A stretch of DNA of 63,980 nucleotides, the filler included, from Licmophora abbreviata (lineage: Eukaryota): assembly GCA_900291995.1 (NCBI GenBank). It is 17 parts of 17 records of this genome, joined end to end, with 100 filler letters (N's around TTAATTAATTAA, not from the genome) between each part and the next. Parts side by side here need not be neighbours in the genome. Positions count along the whole stretch, not along the records: positions 42,026 to 44,213 come from OLMU01004740.1; 16 more parts are not named here. One strand, 5' to 3'. The notes below the pieces were generated by a model. It was not told where the DNA came from. It searched no databases and saw only the letters and a program-made list of their open reading frames with translations. Position 1 is the first letter of the stretch; every line of letters starts with the position of its first letter. Both the position numbers and the translations under genes were made by a program. This document shows, piece by piece, positions 10,972 through 45,367 of this stretch.

Positions 10972-11820
10972 GCTCCCAACCGCTTTTGCAGGTGCGCGAT
11001 ATCACCCGATTTTACGGCACAAGGATCGGCTGCCGCGACGTGAGTTTCGATCTCTATCCCGGAGAGGTCATGGGCATTGTCGGGGAGAGCGGATCGGGTA
11101 AATCCACGCTTCTCGGCTGCCTCGCCGGTCAGTTAGCTCCTGATGCCGGCGAGGTTCTGTTCGACACCCGCAGCGATGGCCTGCGCGATACGCTGAAGAT
11201 GTCCGAGCCGGAACGTCGGATGCTGTCGCGCACGGATTGGGCTTTCGTGCATCAGCATGCGCGCGACGGGCTGCGTATGGGGGTGAGTGCGGGCGGCAAT
11301 GTGGGTGAGCGGCTGATGGCCGTGGGGGCGCNNNNNNNNNNNNNNNNNNNNNNNNNNNNNNNNNNNNNNNNNNNNTTAATTAATTAANNNNNNNNNNNNN
11401 NNNNNNNNNNNNNNNNNNNNNNNNNNNNNNNAGGCGGTCGATTGGCTGGGCCGGGTCGAGATCCCGGCGGATCGGGTGGATGACCGGCCCACGGCCTTTT
11501 CGGGCGGCATGCAGCAGCGGTTGCAGATCGCCCGCAATCTGGTCACCGGACCAAGGCTGGTGTTTATGGACGAGCCGACCGGCGGGCTGGACGTGTCGGT
11601 ACAGGCGCGGTTGCTGGATCTGTTGCGGGGATTGGTGCGCGAAATGGGCCTTTCGGCGATCATCGTGACCCATGATCTGGCGGTGGTGCGGTTGCTGGCC
11701 GACCGGCTGATGGTGATGAAGGACGGGCATGTGGTGGAAACCGGCCTGACGGATCAGGTTCTGGATGATCCTCAGCACGGGTATACACAATTGCTGGTCT
11801 CCAGCGTGCTGCAAGTCTGA
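10968..11820 (+). CDS. phnK: C-P lyase ABC-type subunit PhnK (interrupted by an assembly gap)
   Basis: GESGSGKST, GGNVGERLM, FSGGMQQRLQIARNL, LDDPQHGYTQLLVSSVL. Confidence 0.95.
11332..11431. other. Artificial contig linker, first of 16. Others start at 19291, 21633, 23785, 25267, 29140, 30704, 36086, 40127, 41926, 44214, 45368, 48228, 52562, 59703 and 62873; each is 100 nt.
   Basis: Identical N-run + TTAATTAATTAA + N-run with stops in all six frames. Several flanks duplicate 12-14 nt across the gap (rapZ, GT32-like gene, dctQ). Confidence 0.98.
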
Positions 11821-13811: not shown

Positions 13812-14954
13812 ATGACACAAGACACCATCCTCGCCAATGCCACCCTTGTTCTGCCCGACCGGACCGTGACGGGCCATGTCGTTCTGAGGGACGGGGTGAT
13901 CGCGGATATCGGCACCGGTACAGCTTGTCCCAAGGGCGCACTGAATTGCGAGGGGGATGTCGTGGCGCCGGGGCTCATTGAGTTGCATACCGACAATCTG
14001 GAGCGGCATATCCAGCCGCGCCCCAAGGTCGACTGGCCACATAATGCCGCGATCCTGGCCCATGATGCCGAGTTGGCGGGCACCGGGATCACCACCGTGT
14101 TCGATGCGATGCGGGTAGGGTCGATCCCGAGTGGGCGGGGCAGATATATCAAGTATGCCCGAGGTCTGGCCAATGAGCTGCTGGCGCTGAGGGCGGATAG
14201 TGCATTGAAAATAAGCCATTTTCTGCACCTTCGGGCCGAGGTCTGTTCCGAGACGCTGGAAGAGGAGATGGCCGAGTTCGGAGAGGCGGACCGCGTCGGC
14301 ATCGTCAGCCTGATGGACCATACCCCCGGTCAGCGCCAGTTCCGCGACATCAGCAAGCTGGAAGCCTATGTGAAGGGCAAGCTGTCGCTCAATGACGAGG
14401 AATTCCGCGCCCATGTCGCGCAGTTGCAGGAGCTGCGCGCGCTGCATGGCGACCGGCATGAGGCGGCGGCTGTGGCCGAGGCGAAACGCTATGGCGCGGT
14501 GCTGGCGAGCCATGACGACACCACCGAGGATCAGGTCCGGGTCTCGGCGGGGCATGGCATCCGGGTGGCCGAATTTCCCACCACGCTGGAAGCCGCGCGC
14601 GCCTGCCATGTGCATGATATTGCTATCATAATGGGTGCGCCCAACCTGATCCGGGGGGGCTCGCATTCGGGCAATGTGGCCGCGCATGATCTGGCGCGGG
14701 CGGGGCATCTGGATATCCTGTCATCGGATTACGTGCCTTCGGCGCTGCTGCTGGCTGCGGTGCAACTGGGCGAGATCTGGGGGGATATGGCCAAGGGGCT
14801 GGCGACGGTCACGGCGAACCCGGCGCGCAGTGTGAGGCTGGAGGATCGGGGGGTGCTGGAGCCGGGCAAACGGGCGGATGTGATCCGCTTCGCGATGCGC
14901 GGCGGGGTGCCGGCGCTGCGCGGGGTTTGGTCGCGGGGAGAGCGCGTCGCCTGA
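13812..14954 (+). CDS. phnM: Alpha-D-ribose 1-methylphosphonate 5-triphosphate diphosphatase
   Basis: PGLIELHTDNLERH, SLMDHTPGQRQF, ASHDD, AEFPTT, MGAPNLIRGGSHSGN, LSSDYVP. Confidence 0.96.
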   Translation: MTQDTILANATLVLPDRTVTGHVVLRDGVIADIGTGTACPKGALNCEGDVVAPGLIELHTDNLERHIQPRPKVDWPHNAAILAHDAELAGTGITTVFDAMRVGSIPSGRGRYIKYARGLANELLALRADSALKISHFLHLRAEVCSETLEEEMAEFGEADRVGIVSLMDHTPGQRQFRDISKLEAYVKGKLSLNDEEFRAHVAQLQELRALHGDRHEAAAVAEAKRYGAVLASHDDTTEDQVRVSAGHGIRVAEFPTTLEAARACHVHDIAIIMGAPNLIRGGSHSGNVAAHDLARAGHLDILSSDYVPSALLLAAVQLGEIWGDMAKGLATVTANPARSVRLEDRGVLEPGKRADVIRFAMRGGVPALRGVWSRGERVA

Positions 14955-16008: not shown

Positions 16009-16175
16009 CGTGCCGTTCCGACGCGCGTGATGGCATGTTGCCTATGCGGGGGTCATGGCGGGCCTGACATTTTTATCGCTCCGACATGCAGAGAGTTGCG
16101 GCAGGCTTGATCTGGATCAACGCGGCGCGCGATTTCATATGCTGAATATAGAATATATATTTGGAGCGTCCCGGA

Positions 16176-17138
16176 ATGACCGACCCGACCCACCGCTGGC
16201 TTGAGCATTATCCCGTCACCCTGTTCACCATCGTGATGGGCATGGCCGGGCTGACCCTGGCGCTGCGTGCCGGGGAGCAGGCACTGGGCCTGACATCGGC
16301 GCTGTCGGCGGCGGTCTATGTGGTCACGCTGGCCTTGTTCGGGGTGATCGCGGCCGGCTATGGCGCCAAGGCGCTGAGACATCCCGCCGCCCTGCGGGCG
16401 GAATGGGATCATCCCGTGAAGCTGGCGTTTTTCCCGGCGATTTCCATCGGCTTGTTGTTGTTGGCGGCGGCGACACTGCCGTGGTCCGAGCCTGTGGCGC
16501 GGGCGATGTGGCTGATCGGGGCGGCGTCGCAGGGCGTACTGACGCTTGCGGTGGTATCGGGCTGGATCGGATCGCGGGCCTTTCTGCATGGGCATCTGTC
16601 GCCGGCGTGGTTCATTCCGGCGGTGGGCAATGTGATCGTGCCGATCGCCGGGGTCGATCTGGGGTATGTCGAGCTAAGCTGGTTTTTCATGTCCGTCGGT
16701 CTGATCTTCTGGCTGATCCTGCTGACGCTGGTGATGAACCGGCTGGTGTTTCATGACCCACTGCCCGAGCGGTTGCAGCCGACGCTGGTGATCCTGATCG
16801 CGCCGCCTGCGGCGGGGTTCCTGGCCTGGGTCAAGCTGACCGGCGGGATCGACCATCTGGCGCATATCCTGCTGAATGGTGGGTATTTCTTTGGTCTGGT
16901 CGTGGCGGTGCAACTGCCGCGCATCCTGCGGCTGCCCTTTGCGATGTCCTTCTGGGCGCTCAGCTTTCCTGTGGCGGCGCTGACCATTGCCAGCCTGCAT
17001 TATGCCGAAGTCACCGGCTCGACCGCCCATCATCTGATCGGTCTGGGGCTGCTTGCAGCGCTGACCGTGACCCTTGGCGCCTTGCTGATCCGCACCTTTC
17101 GGGCGGTCAGTTCGGGTGCCGTGTTTCAACCCGAATGA
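16176..17138 (+). CDS. TDT (TehA/SLAC1) family anion channel
   Basis: About 10 hydrophobic helices; FTIVMGMAGL, HPVKLAFFPAISIG, PAWFIPAVGN, ILIAPP, SFWALSFP. Confidence 0.9.
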   Translation: MTDPTHRWLEHYPVTLFTIVMGMAGLTLALRAGEQALGLTSALSAAVYVVTLALFGVIAAGYGAKALRHPAALRAEWDHPVKLAFFPAISIGLLLLAAATLPWSEPVARAMWLIGAASQGVLTLAVVSGWIGSRAFLHGHLSPAWFIPAVGNVIVPIAGVDLGYVELSWFFMSVGLIFWLILLTLVMNRLVFHDPLPERLQPTLVILIAPPAAGFLAWVKLTGGIDHLAHILLNGGYFFGLVVAVQLPRILRLPFAMSFWALSFPVAALTIASLHYAEVTGSTAHHLIGLGLLAALTVTLGALLIRTFRAVSSGAVFQPE

Positions 17139-17698: not shown

Positions 17699-19290
17699 TT
17701 AGCCCAGAAGGCGGCGGGCGATGACCTGCGCCTGAATTTCGGCAGCACCTTCGAAGATGTTGAGGATGCGGGCATCGCAGAGGATGCGGCTGATGCCGTA
17801 TTCCAGAGCAAAGCCGTTGCCGCCATGGATCTGCAGGCCGTTATCGGCGGCCGACCACGCGACGCGCGCGCCAAGCAGCTTGGCCATGCCGGCTTCGAGG
17901 TCACAGCGGTTGCCATTGTCCTTTTCCCATGCGCTGAAATAGGTCAGCTGCCGGGCCACCATGATTTCCACGGCCATCATCGCCAGCTTGCCCGACACGC
18001 GCGGGAAGGCGATCAGCGATTTGCCGAATTGCTTGCGGTCGATGGCATAGCGCATGCCGACATCCAGCGCCGATTGCGCCACGCCGATGGCGCGGGCGGC
18101 GGTCTGGATGCGGGCGGATTCGAAGGTCTCCATCAGTTGCTTGAAGCCCTTGCCCTCTTCGCCGCCCAGAAGGTTCTCGCCCTTGACGTGGAAGTTGTCG
18201 AAGGCAAGTTCGTATTCCTTCATGCCGCGATAGCCCAGTACCTCGATCTCGCCGCCGGTCATGCCGTCGGTGGGGAAAGGGGCCTCGTCGGTGCCGGGGG
18301 TCTTTTCGGCGAGGAACATCGACAGGCCGCGATGATCGGTGGTGTCAGGGATGGTGCGCGCCAGCAGGGTCATGACATGGGTGCGCGAGGCATGGGTGAT
18401 CCATGTCTTGTTGCCGGTGATCTTCCAATCGCCGTTTTCATCCTTGACCGCGCGGGTGCGCAGGCTTCCGAGATCCGAGCCGGTGTTGGGTTCGGTGAAG
18501 ACAGCCGTCGGCAGGGTTTCGGCGCTGGCAAGGCGCGGCAGCCATTTCTGTTTCTGCTCCTCGGTGCCGCCGGCGATGATCAGCTCTGCCGCGATCTCGG
18601 AGCGGGTACCAAGAGAGCCAACGCCGATATAGCCCCGGCTGAGTTCTTCGGAGACGACGCACATGGACGCCTTGCTCAGACCGAAGCCGCCGTATTCTTC
18701 GGGGATGGTCAGGCCGAAGACGCCCATTTCGGCCAGTTCCTCGATGATTTCCATCGGGATCAACTCGTCCTTGAGGTGCCACTCATGGGCATGGGGTTCG
18801 ACCTTGTCGACCGAGAAGCGGCGGAATTGCTCGCGGATCATTTCGAGCTCGTCGTCGAGCCCGGAATGGCCCACTGTCAGCTCGGCGCTGCGTTCCTGCA
18901 TGAGCTCGACGAGACGGGTGCGCGCGGCCTGCGTGTTGCCGGCGCGGCACAGGGTCTGGATCTCGGGGGTGTCGAGCAAGGCGATGTCGCTGTCGGTCAG
19001 GTCCAGATCGTGCAGACGGACCATTTCGCCCTGGTTCATCTGGATGCCGCCGCGCAGCTGTGAGAGGTACTCGCCGAAGGCGATCTGCTGGATCAGCTGC
19101 TCGACCTCGCCGAATTTTCCCATGTCGGTCAGGCGATTGGCCCAGTTCTGCATCTGGCGCAGCGACTCGACATAGGTGGCGAGCCAGGCAAGGCCGTGGG
19201 CCGCGAATTGATGCGCCTCGACCGCGCCGCCCGAGACCCGGCCATCGACCGTGACCAGATCGCGCATCCGCGCGCGGGCCTTGTCCAGCA
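17699..19290 (-). CDS. mcd: (2S)-methylsuccinyl-CoA dehydrogenase (ethylmalonyl-CoA pathway), 5' end in the gap
   Basis: Acyl-CoA dehydrogenase with the Mcd-type N-terminal extension (HQFAAHGLAWLATYVESLRQM); LPTAVFTEPNTGSDLGSL, GYRGMKEY, RILNIFEGAAEIQA. Confidence 0.88.
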
Positions 19291-19390
19291 NNNNNNNNNN
19301 NNNNNNNNNNNNNNNNNNNNNNNNNNNNNNNNNNTTAATTAATTAANNNNNNNNNNNNNNNNNNNNNNNNNNNNNNNNNNNNNNNNNNNN

Positions 19391-40226: not shown

Positions 40227-40976
40227 GGTGTCGGGGTCTTCGCCATCCATCAGCAGATCGAGGAGATCGGGCACCGCGTCTGGCTCGGTCTGGCTGCGCG
40301 CGCGGCGGGCTTCGATCGCCTCGTCGGCGACGCGTTTCATTTGGGCCACGGCATCACCCGACATCACCCGCCCCGGACGCGGCACCCAGTCGGGAAAGCC
40401 CAGGATGTCGAATAACGAGATCTTGCCCGCCTGCGCGATATAGGCGTCGATCCCCTGATGTACGGCATCCGCCGCAAAGCCGCCATCGCCCGAAAAGGTC
40501 ACGTCGGCGATCACGTCGAAGGTGGTGCGGACCATGTCGGCGGCCATGTCGACGGCACGCGGACCGGCGGCAGTGATCCGGGCGCAACTGCGTTCAGCGG
40601 CGGCACTCATGATGGGCGCGAGGTTCATGACGTTGCGATGCGAAAACACCGGCGCTGCCGTGCGCCGCTGCCAGCGCCAATGCGCGCCTTCGGCGATGAA
40701 GAGCGACTCTCCGATCGCGGGGCGCAAAAGCGCCTTGGTGATCACTGATTTGGGATAGGTGTCGACCTCTTCCAGAAGCATTCGGCGGATCGCCGTAGGC
40801 TCCATCACCATGTGCCAGCGCTTGCCGGTGCGGCCCGAGACGATCGGCTCGGTCGTGGCGAGGCGTGGAATGATGCCCAGAATGTTACGGCGCGAGGCCT
40901 GAAGGCTGGCGAGGATGCCCATCGGCTCATCCACCAGCGGGACATGGACGGGCAGCGAGATGTCGGTCGGGATCAT
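40227..40976 (-). CDS. Cytochrome P450, 5' part
   Basis: GESLFIAEGAHWRWQRRTAAPVF (C-helix WxxxR) and PDLLDLL before the I-helix. The heme Cys lies in the gap. Confidence 0.82.
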
Positions 40977-41102
40977 GGCGTCCTCAAACGGTGTCCATGG
41001 GAATATAGGTGGCGCCGGGTGCCGGGCAACGCGCCGCCCAAATCGTTGCGCATGAGGGATGCGTGGGGTATGGGGCGCAAAGATGACCTGAGGGGGACGA
41101 AG

Positions 41103-41804
41103 ATGCTGCGCCTTTTTGCCATGCTGGCCATGATGACGATCGTTGCGGCCTGCACCAATCCCGATGATCTGGATGAAGCGCCGGTTTATCTTGGGGATTT
41201 CAATCTGGCGCATAATGTCGTGGTGGCGCCCAATCTGACGCGGGGCCCGGTGTCGCGCGAGGCCACCGAGGAAGAGTGGATCGAGGCGATGACCAGCGCC
41301 ATCGACGAGCGGTTCGGACGCTACGAGGGTACCCGTCTTTATCATCTGGGCATCAGCGTCGAAGGCTATGTGCTGGCGATCCCGGGCCTGCCGTTGGTGG
41401 CGTCTCCGCGCTCGGCCCTGATCTTGCGGGTCACCGTCTGGGATGATGCCAAGCAGGAGAAGCTGAATGCGGAGCCGCATCAGGTGACGGTGGTCGAAAG
41501 CATGTCGCCCCGCACCATGCTGGGCTCGGGGCTGACGCAGAGCAAGGCGCAGCAGATGCGCAATCTCAGCCGCAATGCCGCCAAGCTGATCCAGAACTGG
41601 CTGGTGCGCGAGAATGTCGACAAGGGCTGGTTCGAAGGCGGTGAGCAGGGCCGTGCCGAGGCGCTGGCCGCGCTGCAGGCGATCGAGGCCGCCGAGGCGG
41701 CGCAAGCCGCGTCGGAAACGCCCGGCGAGACACCCGAACCCGCAAGCGACGAGAGCGCTGTGGCGCCTGAGGAAGACATTGGCGAAACACCCGTCGCCGA
41801 GTGA
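41103..41804 (+). CDS. Putative lipoprotein of unknown function
   Basis: Lipobox IVAA-C after a hydrophobic signal; acidic low-complexity tail. Confidence 0.75.
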   Translation: MLRLFAMLAMMTIVAACTNPDDLDEAPVYLGDFNLAHNVVVAPNLTRGPVSREATEEEWIEAMTSAIDERFGRYEGTRLYHLGISVEGYVLAIPGLPLVASPRSALILRVTVWDDAKQEKLNAEPHQVTVVESMSPRTMLGSGLTQSKAQQMRNLSRNAAKLIQNWLVRENVDKGWFEGGEQGRAEALAALQAIEAAEAAQAASETPGETPEPASDESAVAPEEDIGETPVAE

Positions 41805-41915
41805 TGGCGCGCGCCCCGCACGAACTGCTTGATTTTCACCCCGCAAGCCAATAAACGGCGCGCGGAGCATCAAACGGGCCGGATGGCCCCCCAACTGAAC
41901 AAGGCGCCCGGAGAC

Positions 41916-41925
41916 ATGGCAAAGG
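41916..41925 (+). CDS. tuf: Probable start of elongation factor Tu (remainder in the gap)
   Basis: GGAGAC-ATG GCA AAG G (MAK...) with a strong RBS at the contig end, ahead of the secE-nusG-rpoBC region. Duplicated tuf genes commonly break assemblies. Confidence 0.55.
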
Positions 41926-42044
41926 NNNNNNNNNNNNNNNNNNNNNNNNNNNNNNNNNNNNNNNNNNNNTTAATTAATTAANNNNNNNNNNNNNNNNNNN
42001 NNNNNNNNNNNNNNNNNNNNNNNNNGGTATCCGATAGGTCTTGC

Positions 42045-42072
42045 AGGGGGCGTCCTTCGGGGCGCCCTTTTT
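42045..42072 (+). terminator. Rho-independent terminator
   Basis: AGGGGGCGTCC-TTCG-GGGCGCCCTTTTT with a cUUCGg loop. Confidence 0.85.
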
Positions 42073-42376
42073 GCTTGGACCGGCGCGCAAGGGCGTCACG
42101 CGCCGAGGATTCGGGTGGATGTCAGGCCCGATCCGTCAAGATGCCGCAGGTGCGACCCTGCCCGCGGCCTGTGTTTTCACATGCAGAAACCGGGATGTTC
42201 GGCAGGCCAAGGCGCCGTGCCGGGGGGACGGATTAGTGATGCAAAACAATGGCAAGCCGGATGTTTCTGCAGGTGCGAGAACGCCATCTGCATACGACGG
42301 TATTCCACTAAGCCATTGAAAACTTGACTTTTTTCAGCATTCCGTCACTCTTTGCGCAGATGTCGGGGAGACGCGG

Positions 42377-43237
42377 ATGGATCAGTTGAATGTCAGGGCT
42401 TGGGAAGGCCGTACGGAGTTGCAGGAGGGGTGTATATCGCCAGCTCAGGCCGCGCAGATCCATGCAACTCTGGGGACGCCGGGCAGCAGACCGCCAGCGA
42501 TGGGTGACCTGCTGGAGCCGCTGTGGCACTGGTGTGCGTTCAATCCCACGGCGCCCTTGGCGGAGCTGTCACGCGACGGTCATCCGGCGCTTGGGGATTT
42601 CCTGCCGCCGGTTCGTCTGGAACGGCGGATGTGGGCCAGTGGGGCGCTGAGCTTTGGCGCGCCGCTCAGAGTGGGCGAGCGGCTGACAAAGCGATCTTTC
42701 ATCCGCAGCGTGGTGGAAAAGGAAGGCAAGACCGGGCCGATGGTTCTGGTTTCGGTCGATCACCGGATTTACGGCGAACAGGGTCTGGCGATCGAAGAGC
42801 GGCAGGATATCGTCTATCTCGACATCCCCGACAGGTTCCGCCCGCCCGCTGCCCGCCCGCTGCCCGAGCGCCCGGCGCTGCACAAACAGATCCGGTTGAG
42901 CGAGGCGCTCTTGTTCCGGTATTCAGCGCTGACCTTCAACGCGCACCGCATTCACTACGATCTGCCCTATGCGCAGGAGGTCGAGCATTACCCGGGTCTT
43001 GTGGTGCACGGGCCGATGCAGGCGACCTGGCTTATTCAGGCGGCGTGTCAGTACAAGGGCCGACGACCCAGCCATTTCGATTTCCGCGCCGTGCATCCGG
43101 TGTTCCTGAGCCGCGGCGAAAGCCGCGATCTGGAGATCATGGGCACCGAGGACGAGACCGGCGCGGTACTGCTCTGCACCGGCCAGCAAGGACATCAGGG
43201 CATGCAGGCCACAGCCATTTGGGAGGAAACGGTATGA
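42377..43237 (+). CDS. meh: Mesaconyl-C4-CoA / itaconyl-CoA hydratase family (double hot-dog fold)
   Basis: PLWHW, DGHP, RRMWASG, EERQDIVY, LFRYSALTFNAHRIHYD, GLVVHGP; translationally coupled to mct. Confidence 0.78.
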   Translation: MDQLNVRAWEGRTELQEGCISPAQAAQIHATLGTPGSRPPAMGDLLEPLWHWCAFNPTAPLAELSRDGHPALGDFLPPVRLERRMWASGALSFGAPLRVGERLTKRSFIRSVVEKEGKTGPMVLVSVDHRIYGEQGLAIEERQDIVYLDIPDRFRPPAARPLPERPALHKQIRLSEALLFRYSALTFNAHRIHYDLPYAQEVEHYPGLVVHGPMQATWLIQAACQYKGRRPSHFDFRAVHPVFLSRGESRDLEIMGTEDETGAVLLCTGQQGHQGMQATAIWEETV

Positions 43238-44213
43238 ACAGGTTGCTCAACGGAATGCGGGTGGTCGAAGGCTCGGCGTTTGTAGCCGTGCCGCTGGCGG
43301 GAATGACGCTGGCGCAGATGGGGGCCGAGGTGATCCGCTTTGACCGGATCGAAGGCGGATTGGACGCAGGGCGCTGGCCGCTGGCCCCCTCCGGGCGCAG
43401 CTTGTTCTGGGCAGGGCTGAACAAGGGCAAGAAATCGATCGCGGTGGATATGCGCAGCCCCGAAGGCAAAGAGCTGGTTACCCGGATCATCACCGCCCCC
43501 GGAAAGGATGCGGGACTGTTCCTGACCAATCTGAGGGTGCGCGGCTGGATGGATTACGAAACGCTCAGCCAGTATCGCCGCGATCTTATCATGGTCACGC
43601 TGATGGGCGACCGACATGGCCGCCCGCAGGTGGATTACACGGTCAATCCGGCACTTGGCATCCCCGAGATGACCGGTCCCGAAGGCCATGACGCGCCCGT
43701 GGCCAGCGCACTTCCGGCATGGGATCTGATCGCAGGAAACATGGTGGTGTCGGCGCTTCTTGCGGCCGAGCGTCACCGCCTGCGAGAGGGCGAAGGCCAG
43801 GATGTGGAAATTGCGCTGAAGGACGTGGCGGCAGCAACCATCGGCCATCTGGGCATGATCGGCGATGCGCTCGTCAATCAGACGGAACGCGGCAAATCCG
43901 GCAACGCGCTTTATGGCGCGTATGGGCAGGATTTCGAATGCGCCTGCGGGCGGCGGGTCATGGTGATCGGGCTGACGGGGCGGCAATGGGCGGGGCTGGT
44001 GAAGGTGACCGGCACCGGAGACGCGATGGACCGGCTGGCCAAGCGCACGGGCCACGATCTTGAGGATGAAGGCGTGCGTTGGGAGCTGCGGCACGAGATC
44101 ACCGAGATTCTCCGGCCCTGGTTCGCGGCGCGCCGGGTCGAGGAGTTCGCCGAGCAGTTCGAGGCCCGTGGCCTGACATGGTCGATCTTCCGCAGCGTGA
44201 AGCAAGCGGTGCG
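43234..44213 (+). CDS. mct: Mesaconyl-CoA C1-C4 CoA transferase (family III CoA transferase); 3' end in the gap
   Basis: GMRVVEGSAFVAVPLAGMTLAQMGAEVIRFD, RWP, SLFWAGLNKGK, VDYTVNPALG, LPAWD (catalytic Asp), YGAYGQDF; these match Chloroflexus Mct as I recall it. Confidence 0.85.
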
Positions 44214-44921: not shown

Positions 44922-45367
44922 ATGGCGAAACGGTGGTACTCGGTCAGTGTTCTCTCGAATTTCGAAAAGAGGATCGCCGAGCAGATCAGACAATCCGTTG
45001 CCGAACAGGGGCTCGAAGAGGAAATCGACGAGGTTCTGGTCCCCACCGAAGAGGTGATCGAGGTGCGGCGCGGCAAGAAGGTGACAACCGAACGCCGTTT
45101 CATGCCCGGCTATGTGCTGGTCCATATGGAAATGTCGGACCGCGGGTATCACCTCGTTAATTCGATCAATCGGGTCACCGGCTTTCTGGGTCCGCAGGGT
45201 CGCCCGATGCCGATGCGCGATGCCGAGGTCAATGCCATCCTGAACCGCGTTCAGGAAGGCGAGGACTCGCCGCGCACTCTGATCCATTACGAGATCGGTG
45301 AGCGGGTGAAGGTGAACGACGGCCCGTTCGAGGATTTTGACGGCATGGTCGAGGAAGTGGACGAAGA
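44922..45367 (+). CDS. nusG: Transcription antitermination factor NusG (3' end in the gap)
   Basis: MAKRWYSV, FMPGYVLV, VTGFLG, KOW motif VKVNDGPFEDFDG. Confidence 0.96.

Follow-up and report, generated by a model that had tools for sequence, protein, structure and literature searches.

The window analysed here, a stretch of 63,980 nucleotides from the assembly GCA_900291995.1 of Licmophora abbreviata, is made up of 17 short contigs with N44-TTAATTAATTAA-N44 spacers between them. One of these contigs, 2188 bases long (42026-44213), is occupied solely by a pair of genes, meh and mct, and the host of the pair is a marine Roseovarius-like bacterium. The first open reading frame (ORF1) encodes a hydratase of the Ich/Meh type, and the second (ORF2) a family III coenzyme A (CoA) transferase resembling Mct, the mesaconyl-CoA C1-C4 isomerase of Chloroflexus. 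On balance, the pair probably turns mesaconyl-C1-CoA into mesaconyl-C4-CoA and this into (S)-citramalyl-CoA, from which an Mcl-type lyase would then form pyruvate and acetyl-CoA. Sequence, fold and context lend good support to the enzymatic reading; we infer the substrates, the intramolecular nature of the transfer, the direction of flux, the acting lyase and the physiological role.

A sequence-only reading of the same DNA had described two coupled genes, one for a double hot-dog hydratase and one for a family III CoA transferase. The coupling was confirmed from the ORF coordinates, with an ATGA at 43234-43237 in which ORF2 starts (ATG) before ORF1 has ended (TGA). The two identities were also borne out, that of ORF2 by a match to PF02515, CoA-transferase family III, over residues 5-325 (E 2e-47), and that of ORF1 by its match to PF13452, the double hot-dog fold being modelled.

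Several lines of evidence relate ORF2 to Mct. Its best NCBIfam model was TIGR04253 (2-methylfumaryl-CoA isomerase) with 430.5 bits, the next family reaching 93.6, and public annotation already calls many roseobacter homologues '2-methylfumaryl-CoA isomerase'. Among structures of the PDB, it matched, along all of its preserved length, the Mct of Roseiflexus (7xkg, E 5.3e-121, 407 bits) and that of Chloroflexus (8apq, E 1.6e-119), the next match being a formyl-CoA transferase (E 8.4e-23). In the Mct of Chloroflexus aurantiacus, the catalytic residue is Asp165, the free carboxylate is gripped by Arg47 and Tyr136, and Leu43 narrows the entrance, Leu or Ile being conserved there among intramolecular enzymes; CoA is bound by Asn100, Arg75 and Arg104, with the adenine sandwiched by Phe101 and Ile74 (PMC9813914, in excerpt). 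Our alignment indicated that the window protein retains L43, R47, R74, N99, R103, Y135 and D164, and L43, R47, N99, Y135 and D164 are invariant in 79/79 Rhodobacterales homologues. The adenine sandwich differs in the window protein, Phe being replaced by L100 and Ile by M73. Among the five further family III transferases in the nearest genome (G001), four have an Asp at position 43 and only one retains the Tyr.

Compared with the Chloroflexus and Roseiflexus enzymes, ORF2 is alike in keeping the equivalents of Asp165, Arg47, Tyr136, Leu43, Asn100 and Arg104, and in having a gene for a mesaconyl-C4-CoA-type hydratase alongside. It differs in its Leu for Phe101, its Met for Ile74 and a TIGR04253 score below the cut-off. 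The present host is also an aerobic marine heterotroph with the ethylmalonyl-CoA (EMC) pathway, not an autotrophic phototroph, and has no mcl, mch or smt beside mct.

Of 181 aligned sequences, 136 went into a tree, the other 45 being locus-derived sequences outside 380-520 aa that were removed; no Chloroflexota sequence is in the tree. Within this sampling, the Rhodobacterales proteins form a clade together with those of Actinomycetota/Binatota and the sequences P0121 and P0122, with a support of 1.0 against relatives of 40-44% identity and the five paralogues of G001. All 71 Rhodobacterales sequences fall in one clade (support 0.64, stem support 0.92), whose stem measures 0.50 substitutions per site, and the transferases linked to mtk (malate thiokinase) genes make up a subclade of nine with support 1.0. 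After clustering at 50%, just two full-length representatives exceeded 50% identity, and the next ones, at 40-44%, are without Leu43. Profile, PDB matches and residues thus agree in grouping the transferase with Mct and not with generic CaiB/Ict proteins, as the sequence-only reading had proposed, and the tree, as sampled, probably places it there too.

For ORF1, PF13452 was the single Pfam match, and no NCBIfam model matched. A phmmer search of the PDB found 8khg ('Itaconyl-CoA hydratase', P. aeruginosa) over residues 7-243 with E 8.2e-50. The AlphaFold model, based on 26 aligned homologues, reached a predicted local distance difference test score (pLDDT) of 90.8 and a predicted template modelling score (pTM) of 0.90. 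The top Foldseek matches of this model were structures of the same P. aeruginosa enzyme, PaIch (PA0878; 8khg and 8huc), with template modelling (TM) scores of 0.83-0.93, root mean square deviations of 1.8-2.6 Å and 35-37% identity (for 8khg, E 4.6e-31, TM 0.88/0.93 and 1.8 Å), followed by MaoC-like double hot-dog dehydratases. ORF1 and PaIch have the double hot-dog fold and the blocks DGHP, RRMWA and FRYSAxTFNxHRIHYD in common; ORF1 differs in being only 35-37% identical and in lying outside any ict-ich-ccl cluster. Sequence match and modelled fold thus uphold a double hot-dog hydratase of the PaIch/Meh type, a label set by the comparison with PaIch. PaIch-type enzymes are described as itaconyl-CoA isomerases and mesaconyl-C4-CoA hydratases (PMC12290011, in excerpt), and the product of ORF1 is predicted to act as a mesaconyl-C4-CoA hydratase, an itaconyl-CoA hydratase or both. 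Of 201 genomes sampled as one per genus of the family of G001, 123 carry a paralogue of ORF1 with 37-50% identity. The second copy of G001 itself (L036:7492-8283; G001:C1:393521-394189) has genes for a LysR regulator and for an OYE/FadH-type oxidoreductase in its vicinity.

In the same family sample, 32 genomes contain an Mct-like gene (448-581 bits), and in 30 of these the hydratase gene lies immediately upstream on the same strand, the exceptions being G195 and G037. A hydratase is likewise found upstream in 76 of the best 80 named loci, all from Rhodobacterales, so that chance cannot account for the pairing. Because the sampled genomes are related, co-occurrence counts serve for description alone, and the simple script that called genes in the loci, based on third-position GC content, missed some of them. 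The closest named locus among the best 80 is that of Roseovarius halotolerans (89%), and other cultured carriers with names include Planktotalea frisia SH6-1, Cognatishimia activa, Shimia aestuarii and a Dinoroseobacter strain. We detected no upstream hydratase for mct in L023 (G195), L024 (G037) and two loci of Roseovarius spp. (L097 and L114). In G195, mct directly follows mtkB and precedes a GntR regulator, the locus being without a hydratase, and in G037 it has a DUF1638/TetR pair on one side and an MM_CoA_mutase gene on the other.

In 8/32 genomes (G031, G043, G068, G095, G124, G138, G195 and G201), mtkA lies up to about 3 kb upstream, and these loci are read as mtkA-mtkB-meh-mct, the genes in between being annotated for G031, G068 and G195 only. 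The longer order sga-mclA-mtkA-mtkB-meh-mct was found in four of the 80 named loci and in G031, and the order sga-mclA-meh-mct in one of the 80. Such links with mtkAB, mclA and sga tie the pair to malyl-CoA and glyoxylate metabolism. The malate-CoA ligase beta (MtkA) equivalog was over its cut-off in 48 of the 201 genomes, that is, in 19/32 of those with the pair versus 29/169 of the others, although the relatedness of the genomes means that this is not an independent test.

Beyond the family, strong Mct matches occurred in 34/301 alphaproteobacterial genomes, from 26 families. One locus of an alphaproteobacterium of another family (L204; G317:C200:6757-10956) has the order Ich/Meh-type hydratase, Mcl-like lyase and Mct, which we take to be the order in Chloroflexus. 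The best 80 loci of a second scan belong to Actinomycetota/Binatota and represent a second large group of Mct-like genes (L119-L198), from Solirubrobacterales, Thermoleophilia and Binataceae. Their proteins share 50-57% identity with that of the roseobacter and stand nearer to the Roseiflexus enzyme (P0122 reaches 566.6 bits to 7xkg). In this group, the Mct-like gene sits behind Mcl-like and Mch-like genes, and the 5-kb flanks yielded no Ich-type hydratase. The main text of a paper on Binatota has no passage on the isomerase (PMC8262859).

The partner enzymes were searched for genome-wide in G001, which served as a proxy for the window's own genome. Its Ccr is over the cut-off (614 bits), and one of its two B12 mutases is a second MM_CoA_mutase gene located 1.7 kb from ccr, the probable Ecm. 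An Mch was recognized by 428.5 bits to 8hgn, a beta-methylmalyl-CoA dehydratase. Among three CitE-like lyases, one is an orthologue of the Mcl1 of R. sphaeroides (617 bits to 4l9y), another is MclA-like (410 bits to 5ugr, presumably a structure from Methylobacterium extorquens), and the third, which adjoins mch, is probably Mcl2. The window itself contributes (2S)-methylsuccinyl-CoA dehydrogenase (Mcd), with 845.4 bits to 6es9 and 299.5 bits to 8ciw, '(2S)-methylsuccinyl-CoA dehydrogenase'; in NCBIfam, its ORF matched generic acyl-CoA dehydrogenase models alone, all under cut-off. The EMC enzymes found are thus Ccr, the probable Ecm, Mch, Mcl1 and the probable Mcl2 in G001, and Mcd in the window. 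G001 also encodes all four enzyme types of the glyoxylate-assimilation limb (Mcl, Mch, Mct and Meh). The sequence-only reading had called for a search for mch, mcl, ccr and ecm, with a lack of mch/mcl counting against it, and G001 does encode an Mch, Ccr and the orthologue of Mcl1, with a second B12 mutase next to ccr. As the Mcl of R. sphaeroides forms citramalyl-CoA reversibly from acetyl-CoA and pyruvate (PMC3832036, in excerpt), there is no missing enzyme to postulate.

Three further proteins had best matches in G001 under their equivalog cut-offs, namely GlcD (447.8/567.9), PrpE (703.7/827.4) and AcuI (414.3/440). The mclA of G001 belongs to a separate sga-hpr-mclA-mtkAB cluster, which contains a BhcA-like aminotransferase (577 bits, under the cut-off of 650), a glyoxylate/hydroxypyruvate-reductase-like gene, mtkA and mtkB. 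Genes for a type III glutamine synthetase (gmaS-like) and a glutamate-synthase-like protein adjoin this cluster (L035, G001:C2:249000-267000), and similar genes adjoin meh-mct in G011 (L028). These neighbours hint at a link with methylamine metabolism.

Based on these data, meh-mct is a self-contained operon, and we propose that its products act in series on C5-dicarboxyl-CoA esters. The Mct-like transferase would shift CoA intramolecularly, turning mesaconyl-C1-CoA into mesaconyl-C4-CoA, and the Ich/Meh-type hydratase would add water to give (S)-citramalyl-CoA. A malyl-CoA-type lyase with its gene elsewhere (the orthologue of Mcl1, the MclA-like paralogue or both) would cleave this product to pyruvate and acetyl-CoA. 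Mesaconyl-C1-CoA may come from the EMC pathway (Ccr to Mcd) or from glyoxylate and propionyl-CoA via Mcl and Mch, both sources being encoded in the nearest genome. The unit would thus represent the glyoxylate-assimilation limb of the 3-hydroxypropionate bi-cycle placed in an EMC-pathway heterotroph. The thermodynamics of citramalyl-CoA favour cleavage (PMC3832036, in excerpt), which makes this forward direction likelier than the reverse, glyoxylate-regenerating one.

Three physiological roles had been proposed, namely diversion of mesaconyl-CoA to pyruvate, co-assimilation of glyoxylate with propionyl-CoA, and entry of itaconate or mesaconate into central metabolism; sequence cannot tell them apart. 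That the pair might replace the beta-hydroxyaspartate cycle was considered and rejected: BhcA was over its cut-off in 21/32 pair-bearing versus 66/169 other genomes, and being commoner where the pair is present, it lends the glycolate/glyoxylate idea nothing in the way of complementarity. More tentatively, and with the odds rather against it, the pair may close an oxygen-tolerant route from acetyl-CoA and CO2 to pyruvate in roseobacters. Two acetyl-CoA would pass via Ccr, Ecm and Mcd to mesaconyl-C1-CoA, and Mct, Meh and an Mcl-type lyase would return one acetyl-CoA and release pyruvate, with net assimilation of CO2, bypassing glyoxylate and the decarboxylation of a C4 acid. As part of the same tentative picture, the lineages with linked sga-mclA-mtkAB genes might possess a self-contained module for malyl-CoA, glyoxylate and propionyl-CoA, in which malate thiokinase would replace the Smt of Chloroflexus.

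A number of observations weigh against the proposed conversion. The equivalog cut-off of TIGR04253 is 725 bits, and neither the fragment in the window (430.5) nor the full-length protein of G001 (521.7) reaches it; none of the 201 family genomes or of the 301 genomes of the class contains a protein that exceeds it. The position of Phe101 is occupied by Leu in all 79 Rhodobacterales sequences. ORF2 is incomplete in the window, the partner genes were seen in G001 as a proxy, and a tblastn search of the window found none of Mch, Mcl1, MclA and Ccr. In this organism, no lyase gene lies beside the pair, and the clustering of neighbours in 80 loci revealed no universal third gene, only lineage-specific synteny such as nusG/L11/L1 or Marivita-specific genes. 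MtkA is missing from 13 of the 32 pair-bearing genomes. Ccr accompanies the pair in 31/32 genomes at E<=1e-100, but since it is nearly universal in the family (184/201 at this threshold, 183/201 over its cut-off), this co-occurrence is uninformative. In the literature covered, which included few subscription journals and no supplements, neither enzyme assays nor genetic work on the pair turned up for Rhodobacterales.

Some of these observations would also suit enzymes that act on a different substrate. The cut-off of TIGR04253, the lineage-wide change of Phe101 to Leu and the long stem of the Rhodobacterales might all mean that these proteins use some other dicarboxyl-CoA, for example a different substituted fumaryl- or succinyl-CoA, in which case Mct and Meh would be misnomers, and intramolecular family III transferases with other substrates are known, such as ThnP (PMC11659651, in excerpt). 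However, neither the catalytic Asp nor the Arg47 and Tyr136 that bind the carboxylate vary, the family of the partner hydratase acts on mesaconyl-C4-CoA and itaconyl-CoA, and the genomic links are with enzymes that make or use mesaconyl-CoA, and so we regard another substrate as quite improbable. A somewhat stronger case, though still an unlikely one, can be made for the catabolism of free C5-dicarboxylates (itaconate, mesaconate, methylsuccinate or citramalate). The hydratase would then be an itaconyl-CoA hydratase, like its closest solved relative from P. aeruginosa, the Mct-like enzyme would correct CoA esters of the wrong carboxyl or transfer CoA intermolecularly, and an MtkAB-like ligase would activate the free acid in some genera. 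A major facilitator superfamily transporter directly upstream of the pair in G063 and an ADP-forming CoA ligase adjacent to it in 8/32 genomes agree with such a role, but this ligase reaches 650-735 bits with the malate-CoA ligase equivalog (cut-off 604), and the clustered aminotransferase and hydroxyacid reductase fit glyoxylate metabolism rather than that of itaconate. Also at odds with C5 catabolism are the lack of an Ict/Ccl-type cluster (the neighbours in G001 are tRNA-Trp, secE and nusG), the 162-189 bits of the three CitE-like proteins of G001 against a RipC_Ccl cut-off of 375, and the conservation of the Leu43/Arg47 'cork' residues of intramolecular Mcts.

The same reactions could in principle run backwards, from acetyl-CoA and pyruvate through (S)-citramalyl-CoA, mesaconyl-C4-CoA, mesaconyl-C1-CoA and beta-methylmalyl-CoA to glyoxylate and propionyl-CoA, as a citramalate cycle at the CoA level that would regenerate glyoxylate for C1 assimilation of the serine-cycle type. 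Every step is reportedly reversible (PMC3832036 and PMC9196870, both in excerpt), the pair stands with sga, a hydroxypyruvate/glyoxylate reductase gene, mclA and mtkAB in G031, G068, L096, L109, L113 and L115, and its gmaS-like and glutamate-synthase-like neighbours in G011 are methylamine genes. Nevertheless, synthesis of citramalyl-CoA required pyruvate in 200-fold excess, and even then the balance lay on the side of cleavage (PMC3832036, in excerpt), nearly all these genomes already possess the EMC pathway for regenerating glyoxylate, and the 13 genomes without MtkA count against it as well, making net flux in this direction very unlikely. The least probable of these explanations, in our view, is metabolite salvage or repair, in which the pair would clear mesaconyl-C4-CoA or itaconyl-CoA arising as side products in cells with two B12 mutases, turning them into pyruvate and acetyl-CoA. 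G001 does have two such mutases, the neighbourhood is a housekeeping one (tuf, tRNA-Trp, secE, nusG) in G001, G005, G025 and G046, with nusG downstream in 28 of the 80 named loci, and a preprint proposes that citramalyl/malyl-CoA lyase protects B12 enzymes (10.1101/2024.09.25.614871, in excerpt). On the other hand, that the operon is fused with mtkAB-mclA-sga genes elsewhere among the genera suggests a pathway that carries flux, and a patchy distribution (32/201) where the EMC pathway is nearly universal argues against a general need for repair.

The pair has relatives among known systems. The canonical EMC pathway (Ccr, Ecm, Mcd, Mch, Mcl1 and Mcl2) has mesaconyl-C1-CoA, and possibly the lyase Mcl1, in common with the proposed route, but it lacks Mct and Meh, which would branch this intermediate towards pyruvate and acetyl-CoA. 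The Ict-Ich-Ccl clusters of Pseudomonas, Cupriavidus and Yersinia employ the same hydratase family and reach the same end products through (S)-citramalyl-CoA, whereas the roseobacter pair has no adjacent gene for Ict, Ccl, MmgE/PrpD or an acyl-CoA dehydrogenase, and its transferase partner is of the intramolecular Mct type. A further parallel is offered by heterotrophic or mixotrophic Proteobacteria with an incomplete 3-hydroxypropionate bi-cycle, including the Olavius gamma1 symbiont, which have Mct and Meh with Mch and Mcl but without the autotrophic key enzymes. The alphaproteobacterium Ca. Riegeria santandreae expresses the EMC pathway together with Mch, Mcl, Smt, Mct and Meh (PMC6486704, in excerpt), thus combining the bi-cycle limb with the EMC pathway as proposed here. 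Incomplete bi-cycles are also known from Ca. Kentron (PMC6593406) and from Porphyrobacter and Erythrobacter sp. NAP1 (PMC10674011), and it is proposed that they serve to co-assimilate acetate, propionate, succinate, malate or glyoxylate (PMC6486704, in excerpt; PMC6593406; PMC10674011). In a metagenome-assembled genome of Rhodobacteraceae related to Thalassococcus, the presence of mcl, mct and meh was called 'surprising' and their role uncertain (PMC8139981).

The sequence-only reading had presented the pair as a candidate for a new C5 shunt. Given that the EMC pathway with a partial bi-cycle containing Mct and Meh has already been published for Ca. Riegeria (PMC6486704, in excerpt), the concept has a precedent and the claim of novelty is unsupported: the families of the enzymes are known, and a role for them in heterotrophs of this kind had already been suggested. 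What distinguishes the roseobacters is that the incomplete bi-cycles use Smt (succinyl-CoA:malate CoA transferase), whereas eight of the 32 genera have malate thiokinase genes before the pair, and that the pair of the present organism stands isolated beside tRNA-Trp-secE. The arrangement mtkAB-meh-mct was not found described in the literature covered, and malate thiokinase in place of Smt in related genera may be an undescribed arrangement worth following up.

The positions of the operon, of mcd and of the filler are given in Table 1. ORF2 ends at the contig edge after 326 codons, the complete gene of G001 having 412. Neighbours across a spacer are not physically adjacent, and this affects two statements of the sequence-only reading. 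It had placed mcd at 17699-19290, and the gene is real (6es9, 8ciw), but it belongs to a different contig, so that its link with the pair is not physical. It had also set the pair between tuf and secE, which holds for relatives but is no more than implied for this window, where the contigs are separate and a tblastn search with EF-Tu of the whole window (E<=1e-5) found no tuf. The contig after that of the pair contains nusG (44922-45365). G001 has 96% nucleotide identity across all 2188 bases, with 34% of sampled words in common, and presents the order contig end, hydratase, Mct, tRNA-Trp, a 265-aa ORF, secE, nusG, rplKAJL and rpoBC. Immediately upstream of the pair, tuf is found in G025 and G046, and in 14 of the 80 named loci it lies upstream. 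A collapsed tuf repeat could explain the contig break.

Table 1. Positions of the meh-mct operon, mcd and the filler in the window
Feature	Position	Strand	Remark
Mcd, (2S)-methylsuccinyl-CoA dehydrogenase, EMC pathway	17702..19288	-	5' end cut by contig end
5' flank of the operon, contig start to start codon	42026..42376	+	
ORF1, Ich/Meh-type double hot-dog enoyl-CoA hydratase, 286 aa	42377..43237	+	
ATGA start/stop overlap coupling ORF1 and ORF2	43234..43237	+	
ORF2, Mct-like CoA transferase of family III, predicted to be a mesaconyl-CoA C1-C4 isomerase	43234..44213	+	
Spacers	11332-11431, 19291-19390 and 14 more		filler

Some other features of the window were recorded. The contig that precedes that of the pair is filled by a P450-like ORF (40227-41924, minus strand), and in G025 a P450 gene lies just past tuf, upstream of meh-mct, a position that fits a tuf contig collapsed and missing from this assembly. 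The order of the contigs (P450 contig, meh-mct, secE-nusG, rplJL-rpoB, rpoC) tracks the synteny of G001 and G025. At 43267-43339, contigs from several public runs pile up and break, with a depth of 43-48 versus about 9 elsewhere (X6); this is the conserved N-terminal segment of CoA transferases, common to many organisms, and it is the probable cause of assembly breaks. In one metatranscriptome, short contigs are 90-99% like parts of both genes, which is no demonstration of transcription. A scan of 42026-44213, 5' flank included, found no promoter-like or terminator-like sites, and the sole Rfam match in the homologous stretch of G001 (the stretch scanned in place of the window) was tRNA-Trp. 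The mcd contig also contains a gene for PhnM of the carbon-phosphorus lyase pathway (13812-14951, plus strand; 535.8 bits, over the cut-off) and a TehA/dicarboxylate-transporter-like gene (16161-17135, plus strand).

Roseobacters are major consumers of algal glycolate, of C3 units derived from dimethylsulphoniopropionate, and of acetate. A branch from mesaconyl-CoA to pyruvate and acetyl-CoA, if true, would alter models of their carbon yield and CO2 co-assimilation. It would also account for the '3-hydroxypropionate bi-cycle' markers (mct, meh) that surveys based on KEGG recurrently report in marine heterotrophs. The occurrence of the pair in 32 of 201 sampled genera, its two recurrent settings, one linked to tuf/secE and the other to mtkAB, the partner enzymes recognized in the nearest genome and the cultured carriers with names provide handles for testing, and the value of the present analysis is that an old hypothesis becomes testable in an abundant marine group.

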